Shown: positions 50,164-60,256 of the stretch, one piece after another
Layout of the letters: the number at the start of each line of letters is the position of its first letter
How positions within the stretch are numbered: position 1 is the first letter of the stretch
Origin: Gammaproteobacteria bacterium
GTDB lineage: Bacteria; Pseudomonadota; Gammaproteobacteria; SZUA-152
Assembly: GCA_050116575.1 (NCBI GenBank)
Contig: JASFOJ010000001.1
Span: forward strand, 43,811 to 107,810
DNA length: 64,000 bases
Reading direction: 5' to 3'
The notes under the pieces: generated by a model
Database searches by the model: none
What the model was told of the DNA's origin: nothing
Seen by the model: only the letters and a program-made list of their open reading frames with translations
Translations under genes and position numbers: made by a program

Positions 50164-50511
50164 GGAGAGGTGGTCGCTACCGACATCCCTGTCTTCCGCG
50201 ACACTTGCACGTCCGTGTGCATTGTCCGAGTGGTTGAAGGAGCACGCCTGGACGATGTGCAGGAAGCACAAGTGCCGCGGGAGGCAGGAAGCCGAGAGCG
50301 GCAAGTGTGTAACACTTTTCAGGCCGTCAATCAGCCTTAAGAGTCAGATTACAAACAAAAATTGGAGAGGTGTCCGAGTGGTTGAAGGAGCACGCCTGGA
50401 CGATGTGCAGGAAGCACAAGTGCCGCGGGAGGCAGGAAGCCGAGAGCGGCAAGTGTGTAACACTTTTCAGGCCATCAATCAGCCTTAAGAGTCAGATTAC
50501 AAACAAAAATT
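50164..50511 (+). repeat. two tandem degenerate tRNA-Ser-derived units (200 bp and 148 bp) directly upstream of the intact tRNA-Ser
   Basis: Each unit starts with GGAGAGGTG...TCCGAGTGGTTGAAGGAGCACGCCTGGA (the tRNA-Ser 5' half). It then carries a ~50-nt insertion in the anticodon loop, lacks the T-arm and 3' acceptor strand, and ends with a shared 40-bp spacer. Unit 1 carries an extra ~50-nt insertion in the D-arm. Confidence 0.7.
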
Positions 50512-50602
50512 GGAGAGGTGTCCGAGTGGTTGAAGGAGCACGCCTGGAAAGTGTGTATACGTTTATAGCGTATCGAGGGTTCGAATCCCTCCCTCTCCGC
50601 CA
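50512..50602 (+). tRNA. tRNA-Ser (anticodon GGA), CCA encoded
   Basis: GGAGAGG acceptor pairs with CCTCTCC. D-arm TCCGAGTGGTTGAAGGA, anticodon loop CTGGAAA, long variable arm, T-arm GAGGGTTCGAATCCCTC, then GCCA. Confidence 0.85.
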
Positions 50603-50604
50603 TA

Positions 50605-50645
50605 TATTTCGTAAAACCATCCGTCTTTTTGGATGGTTTTACGAA
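50605..50645 (+). terminator. perfect 16-bp inverted repeat immediately after the tRNA
   Basis: TTTCGTAAAACCATCC gtcttttt GGATGGTTTTACGAAA. Confidence 0.5.
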
Positions 50646-50650
50646 ATATC

Positions 50651-50819: not shown

Positions 50820-50935
50820 GGTGCCTCATATCGGTTCCCTCGCAACGAGAAACTGTGAACCCCGTCAGGCCCGGAAGGGAGCAGCGGCAGCAGTGGCTTC
50901 GTGTGCCGGGGTGTGGCTGGTATGAGTCACCACCC
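50820..50935 (+). ncRNA. ffs: signal recognition particle 4.5S RNA
   Basis: GGTTCCCTCGCAACG...GTCAGGCCCGGAAGGGAGCAGC...GTGTGCCGGGGTGTGGCTGG aligns nearly base-for-base with domain IV of E. coli 4.5S RNA. The ends are complementary (GGTGCCTCATATC / GGTATGAGTCACC). Confidence 0.75.
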
Positions 50936-56869: not shown

Positions 56870-56909
56870 ATTTTCGCGGTTCGGTCACCGAAGCCATTAG
56901 ATACAACAA

Positions 56910-56944
56910 ACCCTTTCCCCGCCCGCCGGGGAAAGGGTTTTTTA
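56910..56944 (+). terminator. rho-independent terminator
   Basis: CCCTTTCCCCGCCCGCCGGGGAAAGGG followed by TTTTTT. Confidence 0.7.
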
Positions 56945-57024
56945 ACACCTTCGCAAAATACATACGATGTAACTCTAAAACATTCACTTAAAGTTAAATA
57001 TATCCATCAACGGCATCGCGGCCG

Positions 57025-58002
57025 TCAGTAGATATGGACCACCAGCACGTGAGCCAGGGAACACACCAATAATAAATACATCACCGGCACGTGAAACAGT
57101 CGCCACTTACTCAATAGTTGCTCGCAGGATCGCACGAGCGAGACATCCATCAGCGTACTGATGTATCGTTTGAGATACTGTTTTTCCATCGCGATTGTAG
57201 CTTGCAGTGTCTGTTGATCCCAGTTGCCCCGCCTGGCGACCTCTATCAATACCCGGGTAATCTGATCACCCACCGCCACATAACAGGCGGCGGCCTGGGC
57301 GCGTACCAGTAAATAGGCATACGGGATGTGAAACACGGTTTTAGGCTGTATGAGACATGTTGTGGTTAACCGTGACAGGTGTTTGCGAATAAGCTCGCTG
57401 TCGTATTTCACCAGCGACTCAAACAACTGGTTTTCTTCACGGTCTATTCGCGCCAGCTTGCTATGCATGGTAAAAGACAAGCGGGTAAACAGGAACCGAC
57501 CCAACGCCCCGCTGCCGACGATCAGAACCATGGCGATAATGGCTATCAGGCTGTTAATGGACTGTATGGCAAAAGTCGAGTGGAAAATAATCAGCAAAGG
57601 ACCGGTTAAGCCGGCACCCAAATGCAGGTAGTACCAGGCTTCAAGTTTGCCGGCGTTTCTCAACACAGGCAGACGCTTGCGCAGCGAATACGTCAATGCA
57701 ATCAACATCAACAAACCACCGGCAAGACCTGTGTTATATATAAAATCATAATCGGCAATGGCATTGAACTGCCCCCAACGTATCCACGCTGACGAGAGGA
57801 TAACGGCAATAACGGATGAAACGAGGAAAAATTTGCGTGATGAGGCCCGGGAAGCTTCATTTTTCGATTCGTTAAATTGTCCCGGGTATTTCTGCTTTAA
57901 AATGGCAACCGCGCTGACGATGCCTTTATTTGCTTTGGTAACCTCTTTTTTTGAAGCATTTGAGCCTGAGTCAGCCCTTGACGATTCGTGATTCATGGAC
58001 AA
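57025..58002 (-). CDS. hypothetical inner-membrane protein (4 TM + cytoplasmic C-terminal domain)
   Basis: Hydrophilic Ser/Lys-rich N-terminus, four hydrophobic helices, and a ~140-aa C-terminal soluble region; no family recognised. Confidence 0.4.
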   Translation of the reverse strand: MSMNHESSRADSGSNASKKEVTKANKGIVSAVAILKQKYPGQFNESKNEASRASSRKFFLVSSVIAVILSSAWIRWGQFNAIADYDFIYNTGLAGGLLMLIALTYSLRKRLPVLRNAGKLEAWYYLHLGAGLTGPLLIIFHSTFAIQSINSLIAIIAMVLIVGSGALGRFLFTRLSFTMHSKLARIDREENQLFESLVKYDSELIRKHLSRLTTTCLIQPKTVFHIPYAYLLVRAQAAACYVAVGDQITRVLIEVARRGNWDQQTLQATIAMEKQYLKRYISTLMDVSLVRSCEQLLSKWRLFHVPVMYLLLVCSLAHVLVVHIY

Positions 58003-58500
58003 CCCCCGACGCTTGTAGTTTTAAGTAAACCACCCTGATATTGGGTGCGTCCTTGCGTTACTGCTTTCCTGCCCATTCACACAATGTGTGTCCGGGAAGC
58101 ATCGAGAAGTGAAAACCGGAGACAAGCAGCGCCGGATCAGGCTTGAGACAGACAAACGGATTGCCTGTGTTCACTAACCCCCACTGGTCCCGCCCCTGGC
58201 CGCACCGATTAATTCCCGAGTGTTCACATTCGATGCCTGGTACGACTGCTTTTTCATCGACGCATGCCCCCTGCTTGCAAGGATGAAAAAGCGCTTAAGC
58301 ATAATCATTTACTTATTTACTGCATAAGTAATGCTTATTTATGAGTATATTTGCTGAGGATTCAAAGTCAACGCGACCACGACATTCTCATTTATTGCTG
58401 ACACCTGGATAGGAATATTCTTACTTTGTCGCTTTCACACCATTGAAAATATTGATTTTACGTTGCGGGATATTCAGGTAGACGCGCAACAAAATAATTA

Positions 58501-58597
58501 CCAATCGCCTACAAGGGGCTCCTATGCATAAATCACCCACCTGGGTGAATTCCGAGGTAGGAGCCAGCCTTGCTGGCGATAACGCGCTGCGGGTATA
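58501..58597 (+). repeat. 97-bp repeat copy 1 (RBS + 24-codon mini-ORF, bounded by 7-bp inverted repeat)
   Basis: tATCGCCtacAAGGGGctcctATGcataaatcacccacctgggtgaattccgaggtaggagccagccttgctgGCGATAacgcgctgcgg. Confidence 0.6.
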
Positions 58598-58693
58598 ACC
58601 CACCCTTTCGCACTATTCGTTCCCCGCCGGTGTTCTGCGCCAGAAACATAATTTACCGTTCGTGCAGTCACGACAAGTTGCTGCACGGAATAA

Positions 58694-58790
58694 ACATCTA
58701 TCGCCTGCAAGGGACTCCTATGCATAAATCACCCACCTGGGTGAATTCCGGGGTAGCAGCCAGCCATGCTGGCGATAACGCGCCGCGGAC
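58694..58790 (+). repeat. 97-bp repeat copy 2 (about 90% identical to copy 1)
   Basis: tATCGCCtgcAAGGGActcctATGcataaatcacccacctgggtgaattccggggtagcagccagccatgctgGCGATAacgcgccgcgg. Confidence 0.6.
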
Positions 58791-58844
58791 AGCTAGCCGT
58801 GGTCGACGCCGTCGGTATCAGTGATTTCGCTTGAGTAGATGAAT

Positions 58845-59837
58845 TCAGTGACCGGTCGAATCGTCTGACGGTACGGACGCCAGGCGCTGTTCAATATGGG
58901 AAAGTGTATCGCGGTAGCTGGCAACATATTCGCCACCCAACTGCACAGCCTGTTGTGCGTGCCGCTGCGCAGCGGTTAGATTCCCCTGCTCCATTAAAAC
59001 CTGCGCCAGGTTGTTGTGTGCCGGCGCATAGTCGCGTTTCACGTCCAGAACCTGACGATAAAACTGTTGCGCCTGTTGAAGTTGTCCTCTTAGGTAACAA
59101 ACGTTACCTAAAGCCATGAGTGACACCAGTGACCGCGGCCAGCGTTTGACGGCGGCCCGGTAAGCCGTGTCGGCCAGTGCCAGTTTGCCCTTGCGCTCAA
59201 AATAAGCAACTGCTTTGACATACTGTAAGGGCGTCACCGACGCAGGCATCTCACCCGGCCGCATCACCACCATGGCCCATAGCTTGGCCCGCCGCCAGGT
59301 TCGTTCAAAGGTTTCCAGGCTGATCACATGCTGCTGGATCGTACCGGAGTTAAGCATAATCTCATCATTTGCCGGGTCCATTCCGGTCACCACGGCATAG
59401 TGCCAACGCGGAATCCAGTCCAGCCCCAGGTTCTGGAACACCAGCACCGGATGGCCGGCCTTTAATTCGTCCAGCAATGCGGGAAAACCCGGCTTTATCA
59501 CAAAGGGAATGCGATCATAGTAACGCGCCGCCGCCACCATTTCCGCCTGGAAACTGCCCTGGCGTTCCGGCACATAAACCAACGGCACCAGATCGTCAGG
59601 GGTGACCGGTACTCCCGCCCACTTCAACAACGTCGCTAATGCGGCGGGACCACACTGGTACTCTTGCTGCGGAAAAAAAGGAACATTATCAACTTCGCAA
59701 CGAGGCAACTTGTCCCAGCCGGCGGACTGGCGAAGCTTGTCGATTTGCAGCGTAGTACTGCAGGCGCATAAAAATAAAAGGCTGCCTAAGCAAAGCAAGG
59801 CAGCCCTGACATTCCTGGTCATAACGTAAAACAACAA
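58845..59837 (-). CDS. C39-like papain-fold peptidase domain fused to TPR repeats (lipoprotein; PA2778-like)
   Basis: Lipobox LLFLCAC; QQEYQCGPAALATLL (Gln oxyanion + catalytic Cys); downstream WHYAVVTGMD (candidate His/Asp); C-terminal TPR repeats. Confidence 0.55.
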   Translation of the reverse strand: MLFYVMTRNVRAALLCLGSLLFLCACSTTLQIDKLRQSAGWDKLPRCEVDNVPFFPQQEYQCGPAALATLLKWAGVPVTPDDLVPLVYVPERQGSFQAEMVAAARYYDRIPFVIKPGFPALLDELKAGHPVLVFQNLGLDWIPRWHYAVVTGMDPANDEIMLNSGTIQQHVISLETFERTWRRAKLWAMVVMRPGEMPASVTPLQYVKAVAYFERKGKLALADTAYRAAVKRWPRSLVSLMALGNVCYLRGQLQQAQQFYRQVLDVKRDYAPAHNNLAQVLMEQGNLTAAQRHAQQAVQLGGEYVASYRDTLSHIEQRLASVPSDDSTGH

Positions 59838-59839
59838 TT

Positions 59840-60256
59840 CTAGTCGTATACGGTTTTCTTCACGAAGGGAAAAACGTCGGTGAAACCCATCAGGTCGGTA
59901 ATCAGCAATACAATGAATATGAACGCCAACGTCCCCACGACACCGCCACCGGCCGGCGCTTCATCTATCTGATCGGCAAAAGCCTGAATTTGTTGGTCAG
60001 TCATATTTGCCAGGCGTTGTTTGGCGTCCTGTGGATCGACACCCAACGCGATCAATTGGGCTTGCACTTCCCGCTGCGACAGCAGGTCATTAATGCGCTG
60101 CTTGTTCAGTTGCACAACCTGCTGGTCAACAATGTCTGTGGTCGTCACAATACCGGCCATTGCCGCCTGCTGAAAACTCACCAGCAAAAAGCAAACCAGC
60201 GAAATCCTGGCCGTCAATTTCATTAATGGCGTCTTAGTCGTCATAGTTTTCTCCAT
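59840..60256 (-). CDS. small secreted/C-terminally anchored protein (PA2779-like partner of the C39-TPR protein)
   Basis: Signal peptide MTTKTPLMKLTARISLVCFLLVSFQQAAMA and a C-terminal hydrophobic helix VVGTLAFIFIVLLITDLMGF. Its stop is 3 bp from the upstream gene. The likely start is M at 60256; the longer ORF runs to 60334. Confidence 0.4.
   Translation of the reverse strand: MEKTMTTKTPLMKLTARISLVCFLLVSFQQAAMAGIVTTTDIVDQQVVQLNKQRINDLLSQREVQAQLIALGVDPQDAKQRLANMTDQQIQAFADQIDEAPAGGGVVGTLAFIFIVLLITDLMGFTDVFPFVKKTVYD

Follow-up and report, generated by a model that had tools for sequence, protein, structure and literature searches.

An intergenic spacer of an uncultured gammaproteobacterial clade that probably combines a conserved promoter, operator-like and leader module with a lineage-specific pair of palindromic repeats

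Main

Several groups of short palindromic repeats are known from bacterial genomes. ERIC elements (also called IRU), other enterobacterial palindromic repeats and MITEs such as Correia/NEMIS are imperfect palindromes of ~70–150 bp that occur in transcribed intergenic regions; they often contain fortuitous small open reading frames (ORFs) and can affect mRNA stability when they are co-transcribed. E. coli genomes carry ERIC, REP/BIME and related repeats. REP doublets that form hairpins, termed REPINs, have been described in Pseudomonas fluorescens SBW25 (Bertels & Rainey, PMC3116915, PMC3337134), including a REPIN of ~89 bp (PMC3337134).

Here we analyse an 842-bp intergenic spacer (positions 58003–58844) in a 64-kb stretch of gammaproteobacterial DNA, referred to below as the window. 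A preliminary description had presented the spacer as the site of a duplicated cassette consisting of a ribosome-binding site (RBS) and a mini-ORF, with leader peptides, attenuators, toxin-like peptides, a pair of small RNAs (sRNAs) and miniature inverted-repeat elements as candidate identities. We find that the spacer is a composite of two unrelated parts and conclude, with good but not full confidence, that it joins a conserved promoter, operator and leader module to a lineage-specific pair of palindromic repeats.

Results

The spacer lies between two minus-strand genes, one encoding a membrane protein of 323 amino acids (57025–57996) and the other a C39/TPR lipoprotein of the PA2778 family (58845–59822), an arrangement that the preliminary description had given correctly. 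The ~470 bp next to the membrane-protein gene (57997–58472, minus strand) form a control region that can be aligned across relatives and is conserved without exception in the 11 distinct orthologues; alignment to most relatives extends to 58424–58472, and beyond 58472 nothing aligns to the eight distant orthologous spacers. The remaining ~370 bp (58473–58844, minus strand), which lie 3′ of the PA2778-family gene and hold both repeat units, are fast-evolving and not conserved. This distal half contains an extra opposite-strand ORF in the orthologous loci L025–L028 and is a variable spot in the clade.

The two units are direct copies of 100 nt (58493–58592 and 58689–58788) in the same orientation, annotated without a strand, and they are 90% identical without gaps; blastn aligns 89 nt of them at 93.3% identity (58504–58592 against 58700–58788). 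The copies are 196 bp apart, so the starts reported previously (58501 and 58694) are out of register by 3 nt, although the duplication itself stands. A 27-nt core of the unit occurs twice in the window against 0.00 expected (100 shuffles), and apart from the unit the whole window contains just one other family of repeats of at least 40 nt. The 79-nt core of each unit is a palindrome that is near-perfect in copy 1 (58504–58582), where it is followed on the plus strand by a non-palindromic 12-nt tail (AACGCGCTGCGG), and that has several stem mismatches in copy 2 (58700–58778). An inverted repeat inside the unit (GGCTCCTA/TAGGAGCC) had been noticed, but not that the entire 79-nt core is a single long imperfect palindrome. 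The 7-bp terminal inverted repeat attributed to both copies (TATCGCC/GGCGATA) is complete in copy 2, whereas copy 1 has only the 6 bp ATCGCC/GGCGAT. One end of the unit bears a short REP-like palindrome, GCCAGC-CTT-GCTGGC (GCCAGC-AAG-GCTGGC), and the other end a degenerate inverted partner (GCCCCTTGTAGGC). Copy 1 folds at −42.0 kcal/mol (z −5.4) on the minus strand and −43.0 kcal/mol (z −5.5) on the plus strand, and copy 2, which sits 56 nt past the stop codon of the PA2778-family gene, reaches z-scores of −3.2 and −3.0 on the two strands. A simple tandem duplication of 196 bp is ruled out, because the DNA between the copies is not duplicated.

In several respects the units resemble REPINs: they are extragenic, span ~80–100 bp, form a long, nearly perfect hairpin from either strand (−42/−43 kcal/mol for the 79-nt core, which agrees with the hairpin that defines a REPIN; PMC3337134), carry short imperfect palindromes in inverted orientation at their ends, decay as single copies and cluster in intergenic DNA. 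They differ in that only two copies are seen, both in one spacer of a 64-kb window, in that the second terminal palindrome is degenerate and in that they share no sequence similarity with any known REP. REPINs are expected to have a cognate single-copy RAYT (Y1 transposase) gene in the same genome; the genes examined near the locus, within the 64 kb covered, are not transposases. Membership of ERIC/IRU or REP/BIME is contradicted by a blastn search (word size 11) in which the whole spacer found no match in 5,426 complete E. coli genomes and the two units (58490–58800) none in 72,556 plasmids. Ends that resemble the terminal inverted repeats of MITEs (ATCGCC/GGCGAT) are present. Relatives lack the units, but the DNA around them does not align, so that no clean empty site is seen. 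The units differ from MITEs in lacking an identifiable target-site duplication, the flanks of the two copies being different.

Among relatives, the units are absent from eight more distant orthologous spacers and from ~120 kb of related loci, and no long hairpin equivalent to them was found in the distal spacer of relatives. The closest relative, L014 (91%), has a positional orthologue of copy 1 that aligns at 86% over half of its length, the rest being unalignable, and its hairpin has decayed (z −1.5/−0.4). Substitutions in L014 might have preserved the hairpin through G·U pairs on the sense strand, which folding rejects (z −1.5). Another relative (L033, 88%) is represented by 266 bp of upstream sequence only and says nothing about the units. 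As a separate observation, had copy 1 decayed neutrally after its lineage parted from that of L014, its palindrome would be expected to be much poorer; its intactness could reflect selection acting on the hairpin, a recent re-insertion of the unit, gene conversion or the correction of a quasi-palindrome.

One explanation, which we regard as possible though doubtful, is that the units belong to a dispersed mobile REPIN/MITE family whose copies in the genome would number tens to hundreds, mobilized in trans by a RAYT or an insertion-sequence transposase, and that the pair marks two independent insertions in a permissive spot. The almost perfect 79-nt hairpin, with its end palindrome and degenerate inverted copy like those of the ~89-bp REPIN (PMC3337134), would fit such a family, as would the unduplicated DNA between the copies and the variability of the distal spacer. 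The two copies in the window also resemble each other more closely (93%) than copy 1 resembles its orthologue in L014, and two independent contigs (L006 and L014) both break inside the unit, a repeat-like behaviour since assemblers break at repeats. Against this, neither the window nor the ~120 kb of related loci holds a third copy, and there is no clear target-site duplication. A scan for the 19-nt apex returned five matches in genome contigs (596 Gb), seven in metagenome contigs and none in viral contigs, all of them bare 19–22-mers with unrelated flanks and thus chance matches; these collections do not contain the source genome, so that the scan is no gauge of copy number within it. As a proxy for dispersed copies we used a collection of 5.8 billion proteins that includes the source metagenomes, in which no called ORF carries any frame of the unit. 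All of this evidence on dispersal is indirect.

The units are best read as lineage-specific REPIN/MITE-like palindromic repeats of which only two copies are known, both in the same spacer. Of the identities offered previously, the miniature inverted-repeat element comes closest to the evidence, although dispersed copies were neither found nor excluded. Under this reading, the distal spacer of this lineage would have gained two ~100-bp units in the same orientation, each with a REPIN/MITE-like 79-bp palindrome at its core, and the units would have arisen as DNA-level repeats through insertion, duplication or gene conversion.

If the units are transcribed as the 3′ untranslated region (UTR) of the upstream operon, their hairpins could incidentally impede 3′ exonucleases or read-through; relatives do without them. 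A stronger version, which we judge unlikely, makes the units a locally duplicated functional 3′-end hairpin of the PA2779/PA2778 operon, acting as a terminator, a read-through insulator or a 3′-exonuclease block, which would protect the mRNA upstream and shield the promoter downstream. Their position between the PA2778-family stop codon and the next promoter, with no other terminator-like site in that interval, would suit such a role, as would a T-rich stretch on the sense strand within about 10 nt of each palindrome and the unexpected intactness of copy 1. However, the T-runs start about 6–10 nt after the stems instead of adjoining them, and a terminator scan calls neither unit, so that the G+C-rich stem-loop with an immediate U-run that characterizes intrinsic terminators is not what the units provide. 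In addition, relatives lack a comparable hairpin in this stretch, the hairpin is decayed in L014 and partly so in copy 2, and the fold has no strand preference. The equal folding of both strands in each copy, the loss of the fold in L014 and the lack of an Rfam match likewise make the proposed sRNA pair unlikely.

The mini-ORFs that had given the cassette its name are located on the plus strand. In copy 1, the ATG at 58524 opens a frame of 24 codons (58524–58598; MHKSPTWVNSEVGASLAGDNALRV), as described, whereas its counterpart in copy 2 (58720–58824) has 34 codons; the RBS-like AAGGGG does precede the ATG of copy 1, but at a distance of 5 nt rather than 6, and reads AAGGGA in copy 2. In both copies a purine-rich stretch precedes the start codon by 5 nt and the first ten codons are identical, as could be expected if each unit were a translated plus-strand cassette with an RBS and an ORF of 24–34 codons, encoding a leader peptide, an attenuator or a small toxin. 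The remaining evidence makes this extremely improbable. Four of the 22 shared codons differ, all four non-synonymously, and the stop codons differ; the orthologous copy in L014 has neither the ATG nor the AAGGGG; and the RBS and ATG are buried in the −43 kcal/mol stem. No plus-strand promoter-like site was found in the spacer, and the mini-ORFs run antisense to the genes on both sides, which excludes them as leaders of either gene. A concatenated six-frame translation of both units had no homologue at E ≤ 10 among the 5.8 billion proteins. The opposite strand is also open through the unit, as a palindrome would give, and long palindromes routinely yield fake RBS and ORF pairs on both strands. 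The conserved ORF, start and RBS and the purifying selection that mark a leader peptide or small-protein gene are thus missing, and the cassette claim falls: the ‘RBS’ and the mini-ORFs are accidental by-products of the palindrome rather than genes. From the comparisons available, neither a peptide nor a hairpin in the units appears to be under selection.

The conserved part of the spacer has a different organization. It has a sigma-70-type promoter (TTGACT-16-TATACT; 58344–58371, minus strand), the AAATATACT block of which is identical in 11 of 11 distinct orthologues, at 356–383 nt upstream of the ATG of the membrane-protein gene across orthologues. No other promoter-like site occurs in the spacer, and L015, L016 and L022 each have a single site at the matching place. 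Upstream of it, the conserved stretch at 58372–58472 (minus strand) contains short palindromes (for example TAGGAATATT/AATATTCTTA at 58410–58423) that are possible candidate binding sites for regulators. At the predicted transcription start there is an operator-like double palindrome (58301–58338, no strand) composed of two ATAAG-N5/6-CTTAT boxes that are 22–23 bp apart. This site is the only one of its kind in the window (0.06 expected) and is present in every orthologous locus; it is symmetric on both strands (95.8/95.8%) and does not covary, its changes breaking the pairing. These properties indicate that it is most likely a repressor operator. RNAalifold proposed a pairing of the −35 box with the Shine–Dalgarno (SD) region; since the −35 box lies outside the transcript, we set this pairing aside as spurious.

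Between this site and the membrane-protein gene, the minus strand encodes a conserved set of helices. The hairpin at 58248–58292 of the preliminary description is confirmed (−20.9 kcal/mol, z = −3.9); that description gave it an accessory place, but no functional element of the region has better support. It forms helix P1 (58245–58295) of a conserved structured leader and carries a conserved AGGGGGC in the loop; six of its nine pairs have compensatory changes, and 93% of cells are paired. It is followed by a closed domain of ~140 nt (58098–58237), which is delimited by the long-range helix P2 (58237–58219 with 58117–58098; 5 of 18 pairs compensatory) and encloses helix P3 (58207–58202 with 58132–58127), the invariant blocks CAGGGGCGG and GGGGGTTAG(C/T)GA, and hairpin P4 (~58175–58153), which forms in 11 of 11 orthologues from stem sequences that are unrelated. 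Hairpin P5 (58066–58097) has an outer stem of the CUUCC/GGAAG type and a variable inner stem, and is present in most orthologues (for example as ACAC-UUCG-GUGU in L029). An SD-like G-run (GCGTCGGGGGTTGTCC) and the ATG of the membrane-protein gene lie at 57994–58009. The minimum free energy fold pairs this G-run with an upstream GGACGCACCC in the window’s clade only, the pairing being inconsistent across clades, and L017 lacks the G-run; SD sequestration was therefore rejected as a general expression platform.

The structure comprises 62 pairs. When derived from and scored on the same alignment of ten sequences, which represent about five independent clades, it has 93.7% of cells paired, against 37–50% in slid controls, and 18 compensatory pairs, against 3–8; none of 500 shuffles reached the observed value on any of five measures, two of which have a false-positive rate of 0–1%. 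Cells with G·U outnumber those with A·C by 86 to 12, pairing falls from 93.7% in the sense strand to 81.7% in the antisense strand, and for the closed domain the covariance model R1 scores 106–159 bits in sense orientation against at most 22 in antisense. No conserved ORF that could encode a small protein is found in the leader, and its indels are mostly not multiples of three. Conservation is uninterrupted from the region to the start codon, with no conserved terminator after the leader and no second promoter before the start codon in the window, L015, L016 and L022. By the generic criteria of covariation, strand-specificity and an extent from promoter to ORF, this is a candidate structured cis-regulatory 5′ leader.

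We considered that the proximal region might instead consist of densely packed DNA sites to which regulatory proteins bind, or be a small RNA gene in its own right, and that the covariation might be an artefact because the sequences are few and related. The double palindrome is symmetric and non-covarying, as a DNA site would be, and the small number of clades and the single alignment used for both derivation and testing leave room for such an artefact. We nevertheless hold this alternative to be distinctly unlikely, as the compensatory changes gather in helices, DNA sites would not give the strong asymmetry of G·U over A·C, P4 and P5 stay hairpins despite full replacement of their sequences, and conservation is unbroken up to the start codon, with neither a second promoter nor a conserved terminator.

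The proposed check against Rfam did not name a family for either the units or the leader: there was no match at E ≤ 1 in 57000–60000 or in five orthologous loci, and a scan of the whole window at gathering thresholds found only a tRNA and an SRP RNA, both elsewhere. The leader was not detected upstream of a distant homologue of the membrane protein in L032 or in other sequence compared. It resembles orphan riboswitch candidates and the large structured leaders of the Rfam ‘Cis-reg’ type, among them motifs discovered through comparative genomics. As in these, a conserved promoter would be followed by a long, conserved 5′ UTR with multiple helices, covarying stems, hairpins of variable sequence and blocks in single-stranded or junction positions that do not vary; the structure is specific to one strand and accompanies a single orthologous gene. 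It differs from them in matching none of the 4,227 models of Rfam 15, in being known so far from only one clade of uncultured Gammaproteobacteria, where it precedes one uncharacterized gene, and in having no recognizable expression platform or candidate ligand.

Discussion

The locus illustrates that a single ‘intergenic region’ can house both a regulatory module that is conserved and repeat DNA that turns over fast, the two meeting here at a sharp boundary near 58472. For the conserved module we infer transcription, the start site, the extent of the leader, its role in cis and a ligand or protein partner. Transcription would begin at the promoter at 58371–58344 and give a 5′ leader of ~340 nt that would fold into at least five helices (P1, P2 closing a domain with P3 and P4, and P5), with invariant G-rich single-stranded blocks between them. 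This folded leader, which belongs to no known family, probably controls the downstream membrane-protein gene. It would act in cis on expression, more probably on translation initiation or mRNA stability than on termination, given that no conserved terminator follows it.

The membrane protein has four invariant histidines and no relatives in Pfam, NCBIfam or PDB sequence searches. Its AF2 model (pLDDT 79.8) gave no significant match in a Foldseek search of the PDB (best E 0.17, TM < 0.3). A more specific proposal, which we consider rather unlikely, is that the leader (57997–58337, minus strand) represents a new class of riboswitch, as a 5′ UTR that contains the aptamer, or else a new ligand- or protein-sensing RNA of another kind. 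It would control this membrane-protein family, whose four invariant histidines would be intramembrane and which is possibly a di-haem cytochrome. In that case, the invariant G-runs AGGGGGC, CAGGGGCGG, GCGGGGGUUAG and CGGGGGUUG would constitute the sensing core. That the signal is related to haem or a metal is speculation, for which the regulated protein gives the only hint.

For the duplicated cassette the outcome is deflationary, as it turns out to be a pair of non-conserved palindromic repeats. As a useful by-product, the analysis yields a candidate cis-regulatory RNA, structured, well supported and not described before, together with its promoter and an operator-like site dedicated to it. 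Should a small molecule be sensed by the leader, this would represent both a new RNA class and the first functional handle on this membrane-protein family in an uncultured gammaproteobacterial clade.

Orthologous loci and the membrane-protein family

The preliminary description had placed the region between a membrane-protein gene and a C39-TPR lipoprotein gene, and both flanks are borne out. Because the two genes lie on the minus strand, the spacer lies 3′ of the PA2778-family C39/TPR lipoprotein gene (58845–59822), itself located after a PA2779-family gene, and 5′ of the gene for a 323-aa membrane protein (57025–57996). The source organism is uncultured, and two JGI metagenome contigs carry an identical copy of the locus. 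A further 15 orthologous loci were traced through homologues of the membrane protein; with an 88% relative (L033) and the window they supply 11 distinct upstream sequences, every one of them derived from an uncultured gammaproteobacterium. Some of the carrier assemblies bear a cyanobacterial name: L016 and L017 (GCA_975961635.1 and GCA_975901915.1) contain the locus, and their proteins are named ‘Kaarinaea lacus’, in NCBI taxonomy a Nostocales cyanobacterium, whereas other carriers are labelled Gammaproteobacteria MAGs. The culture was probably non-axenic, with these contigs stemming from an associated heterotroph. Gene order is kept across the orthologous loci, and a long gap invariably precedes the membrane-protein gene (673–1206 bp on contigs that include both genes).

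The product of window 57025–57996 (−) and its homologues P0001–P0047 define a protein family for which no Pfam, NCBIfam or PDB relative was found. Four histidines in membrane helices (H125, H139, H302 and H316) are retained without exception, even at 25% identity, a pattern suggestive of bis-His haem binding; this is kept as a candidate function because an AF2 model (pLDDT 79.8) gave no significant structural match. The distant homologue in locus L032 adjoins a cupredoxin-like gene and a two-component system.

A conserved promoter and operator-like site

The gene-proximal ~470 bp of the spacer is conserved in every orthologue. Its only promoter-like site, TTGACT-16-TATACT, lies at 58371–58344 on the minus strand, and a single promoter-like site occupies the same position in L015, L016 and L022. 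A AAATATACT block, 356–383 nt from the ATG, is identical in 11 of 11 distinct orthologues. Directly after the promoter is an operator-like double palindrome (58338–58301) of two ATAAG-N5/6-CTTAT boxes 22–23 bp apart, a pattern found nowhere else in the window or in the related loci. It is nearly invariant and perfectly strand-symmetric, with no covariation, and the changes that do occur break pairing. We read it as a candidate operator at which a protein would bind across the predicted transcription start. Conservation extends over the ~100 bp 5′ of the −35 box (58372–58472), a stretch with short AT-rich palindromes (for example at 58410–58423 and ~58436–58456) that are AAGAATATTCTT-like or, in L016, L018 and L022, TTTCA-N-TGAAA-like; additional regulators may bind here.

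A candidate structured leader RNA

Comparison of the orthologues indicates that the stretch from the double palindrome to the start codon has the properties of a structured RNA. With 10 distinct sequences (55–81% identity) as input, RNAalifold recovered, on the minus strand, the hairpin previously noted at 58248–58292 as helix P1 (58295–58245), a long-range helix P2 (58237–58219 with 58117–58098) that closes a domain of ~140 nt, and P3 with inner helices. Standard pairs fill 93.7% of cells, compared with 37–50% when partners are slid by 1–3 columns. Both sides change in 18 pairs (3–8 in the slid controls), and on each of five measures the observed value was beyond the reach of all 500 shuffles. 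Compensatory changes occur in six of the nine P1 pairs. The signal is strand-specific, with 86 G·U cells against 12 A·C cells; gene-sense and antisense strands differ in the share of paired cells (93.7% and 81.7%) and in covariance-model scores for the P2-closed domain (106–159 bits and at most 22 bits, respectively). Two further hairpins, P4 and P5, were overlooked by sequence alignment because their stem sequences are wholly replaced. P4 follows an invariant GGGGGTTAG(C/T)GA block in 11 of 11 orthologues, with stems such as ACAGGCAA/TTGTCTGT, GAAATGGGA/TCCCATTTT and ATATGA/TCATAT; P5 comes after P2.

The leader contains no conserved ORF, and its indels are mostly not multiples of three. An Rfam search, suggested in the preliminary description, gave no match at E ≤ 1 in Rfam 15 for the window region and five orthologous loci, and the covariance model found no second instance in the window or upstream of a distant (33%) homologue of the membrane protein. 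As a kind the leader is familiar, a structured cis-regulatory 5′ leader or orphan riboswitch candidate, but it falls in no described family.

Palindromic units in the distal spacer

The two ~90%-identical copies that first drew attention to the region are present as direct repeats of ~100 nt (58493–58592 and 58689–58788; 90% identity ungapped, 93.3% across the best 89 nt). The coordinates first assigned to them were 3 nt out of register, and the true spacing is 196 bp. The units are one of only two repeat families of at least 40 nt in the window, their 27-nt core occurring twice against 0.00 expected. Simple tandem duplication is ruled out because the DNA between the copies is not repeated. 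The terminal and internal (GGCTCCTA/TAGGAGCC) inverted repeats described earlier exist, but the palindrome is not confined to them: the entire 79-nt core (58504–58582 and 58700–58778) is one long imperfect palindrome, followed in both units by a 12-nt non-palindromic tail, AACGCGCYGCGG (plus strand). Copy 1 folds at −42.0 kcal/mol (z = −5.4) on the minus strand and −43.0 kcal/mol (z = −5.5) on the plus strand, and the fold of copy 2 has decayed (z = −3.2 and −3.0 on the two strands). Folding equally on both strands characterizes a DNA palindrome rather than a strand-specific RNA.

The proposed ribosome-binding site and mini-ORF fare poorly as a coding cassette. The 24-codon ORF exists (ATG at 58524), as does its AAGGGG box, although this lies 5 nt, not 6, before the ATG and reads AAGGGA in copy 2. 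All four differences in the 22 codons shared by the copies are non-synonymous (E>G, G>A, L>H and L>P), the stop is displaced (24 versus 34 codons), and the putative ribosome-binding site and ATG sit within the palindrome stem. The opposite strand likewise holds an open frame, as a palindrome predicts. The mini-ORFs are antisense to both neighbouring genes, no plus-strand promoter-like site was found in the region, and concatenated six-frame translations of both units had no match at E ≤ 10 in 5.8 billion proteins. These features are probably by-products of the palindromic repeats.

In eight more distant relatives, the alignable window spacer stops between 58372 and 58472, and nothing beyond 58472 aligns to any of them; both units therefore lie wholly within non-conserved DNA. 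They are absent from these eight loci and from ~120 kb of related sequence. Relatives without units have no comparable G+C-rich hairpin and no consistent terminator in that stretch, so a 3′ hairpin is not a conserved requirement at this position. Copy 1 has a positional orthologue in the 91% relative, L014, alone; in that sequence the outer arm is divergent, ATG and AAGGGG are missing, and folding no longer yields the long hairpin (z = −1.5 and −0.4). Two independent metagenome contigs break within copy 1: L006, 100% identical to the window, ends at window 58549, and L014 starts at ~58577. Such breaks are typical of assembly graphs at repeats and consistent with at least two copies in those genomes too. 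In L025–L028, from a 76–77% relative, an extra opposite-strand ORF directly follows the PA2778-family gene (L025:1388–1828, L026:1164–1577, L027:1796–2293 and L028:1796–2236); it encodes 137–165 aa with no Pfam match, and its length differs between samples. The distal spacer is therefore a variable spot, a hot spot for insertion and turnover.

Copy number, the central check of the preliminary description, was gauged by indirect means, and these lend no support to a high-copy family. The window holds no third copy. The 19-nt apex had five matches in 596 Gb of species-representative genomes, seven in metagenome contigs and none in viral contigs, all collections without the source organism, and every match was a bare 19–22-mer with unrelated flanks, as chance predicts. 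A protein-collection proxy for dispersed copies (5.8 billion proteins, source metagenomes included) was also negative. The units may instead be a low-copy mobile family. The window copies are more alike (93%) than copy 1 and its L014 orthologue, a sign that within this lineage the unit was recently duplicated, re-inserted or altered by gene conversion. GCCAGC-AAG-GCTGGC (sense strand), itself a short imperfect palindrome, stands at one end of the long palindrome and a degenerate inverted copy of it at the other. REPINs are palindromes with a short imperfect palindrome at one end and its inverted copy at the other (PMC3337134); the units share this architecture, except that their second end is degenerate. 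They resemble REPIN/MITE-type palindromic repeats in look and working, as candidate members only, and differ from Escherichia coli repeat families, to which no sequence similarity was found. They also contrast with an ordinary terminator of this genome, exemplified by the strong bidirectional terminator-like hairpin AACAAACCCTTTCCCCG / CGGGGAAAGGGTTTTTT at 56905–56943, between the convergent Sel1-repeat and membrane-protein genes. Given the lack of conservation, we infer that the units are DNA-level palindromic repeats that would have been inserted or duplicated within fast-evolving, permissive DNA, any effect as a 3′-UTR hairpin being incidental. The feature originally flagged is ordinary and of low interest.

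Elsewhere in the window, a 148-nt unit is repeated in tandem (50223–50518; 99% identity) directly upstream of tRNA-Ser(GGA) (50512–50602), overlapping its first bases; the duplication could affect a promoter region or be an integration scar. A perfect hairpin with 19-bp arms (50604–50649) and a small SRP RNA gene (50829–50925) follow.

Proposed regulation

A protein binding the double palindrome would probably control transcription from the conserved promoter, and the long leader would modulate expression of the membrane protein in cis. With no conserved terminator after the leader structure, control of translation or stability is favoured over attenuation. In the window’s own clade the MFE fold pairs the Shine–Dalgarno-like G-run with an upstream GGACGCACCC; this pairing is not general, and L017 is without the G-run. 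As a new candidate RNA the leader is of moderate interest, and its known distribution is narrow.
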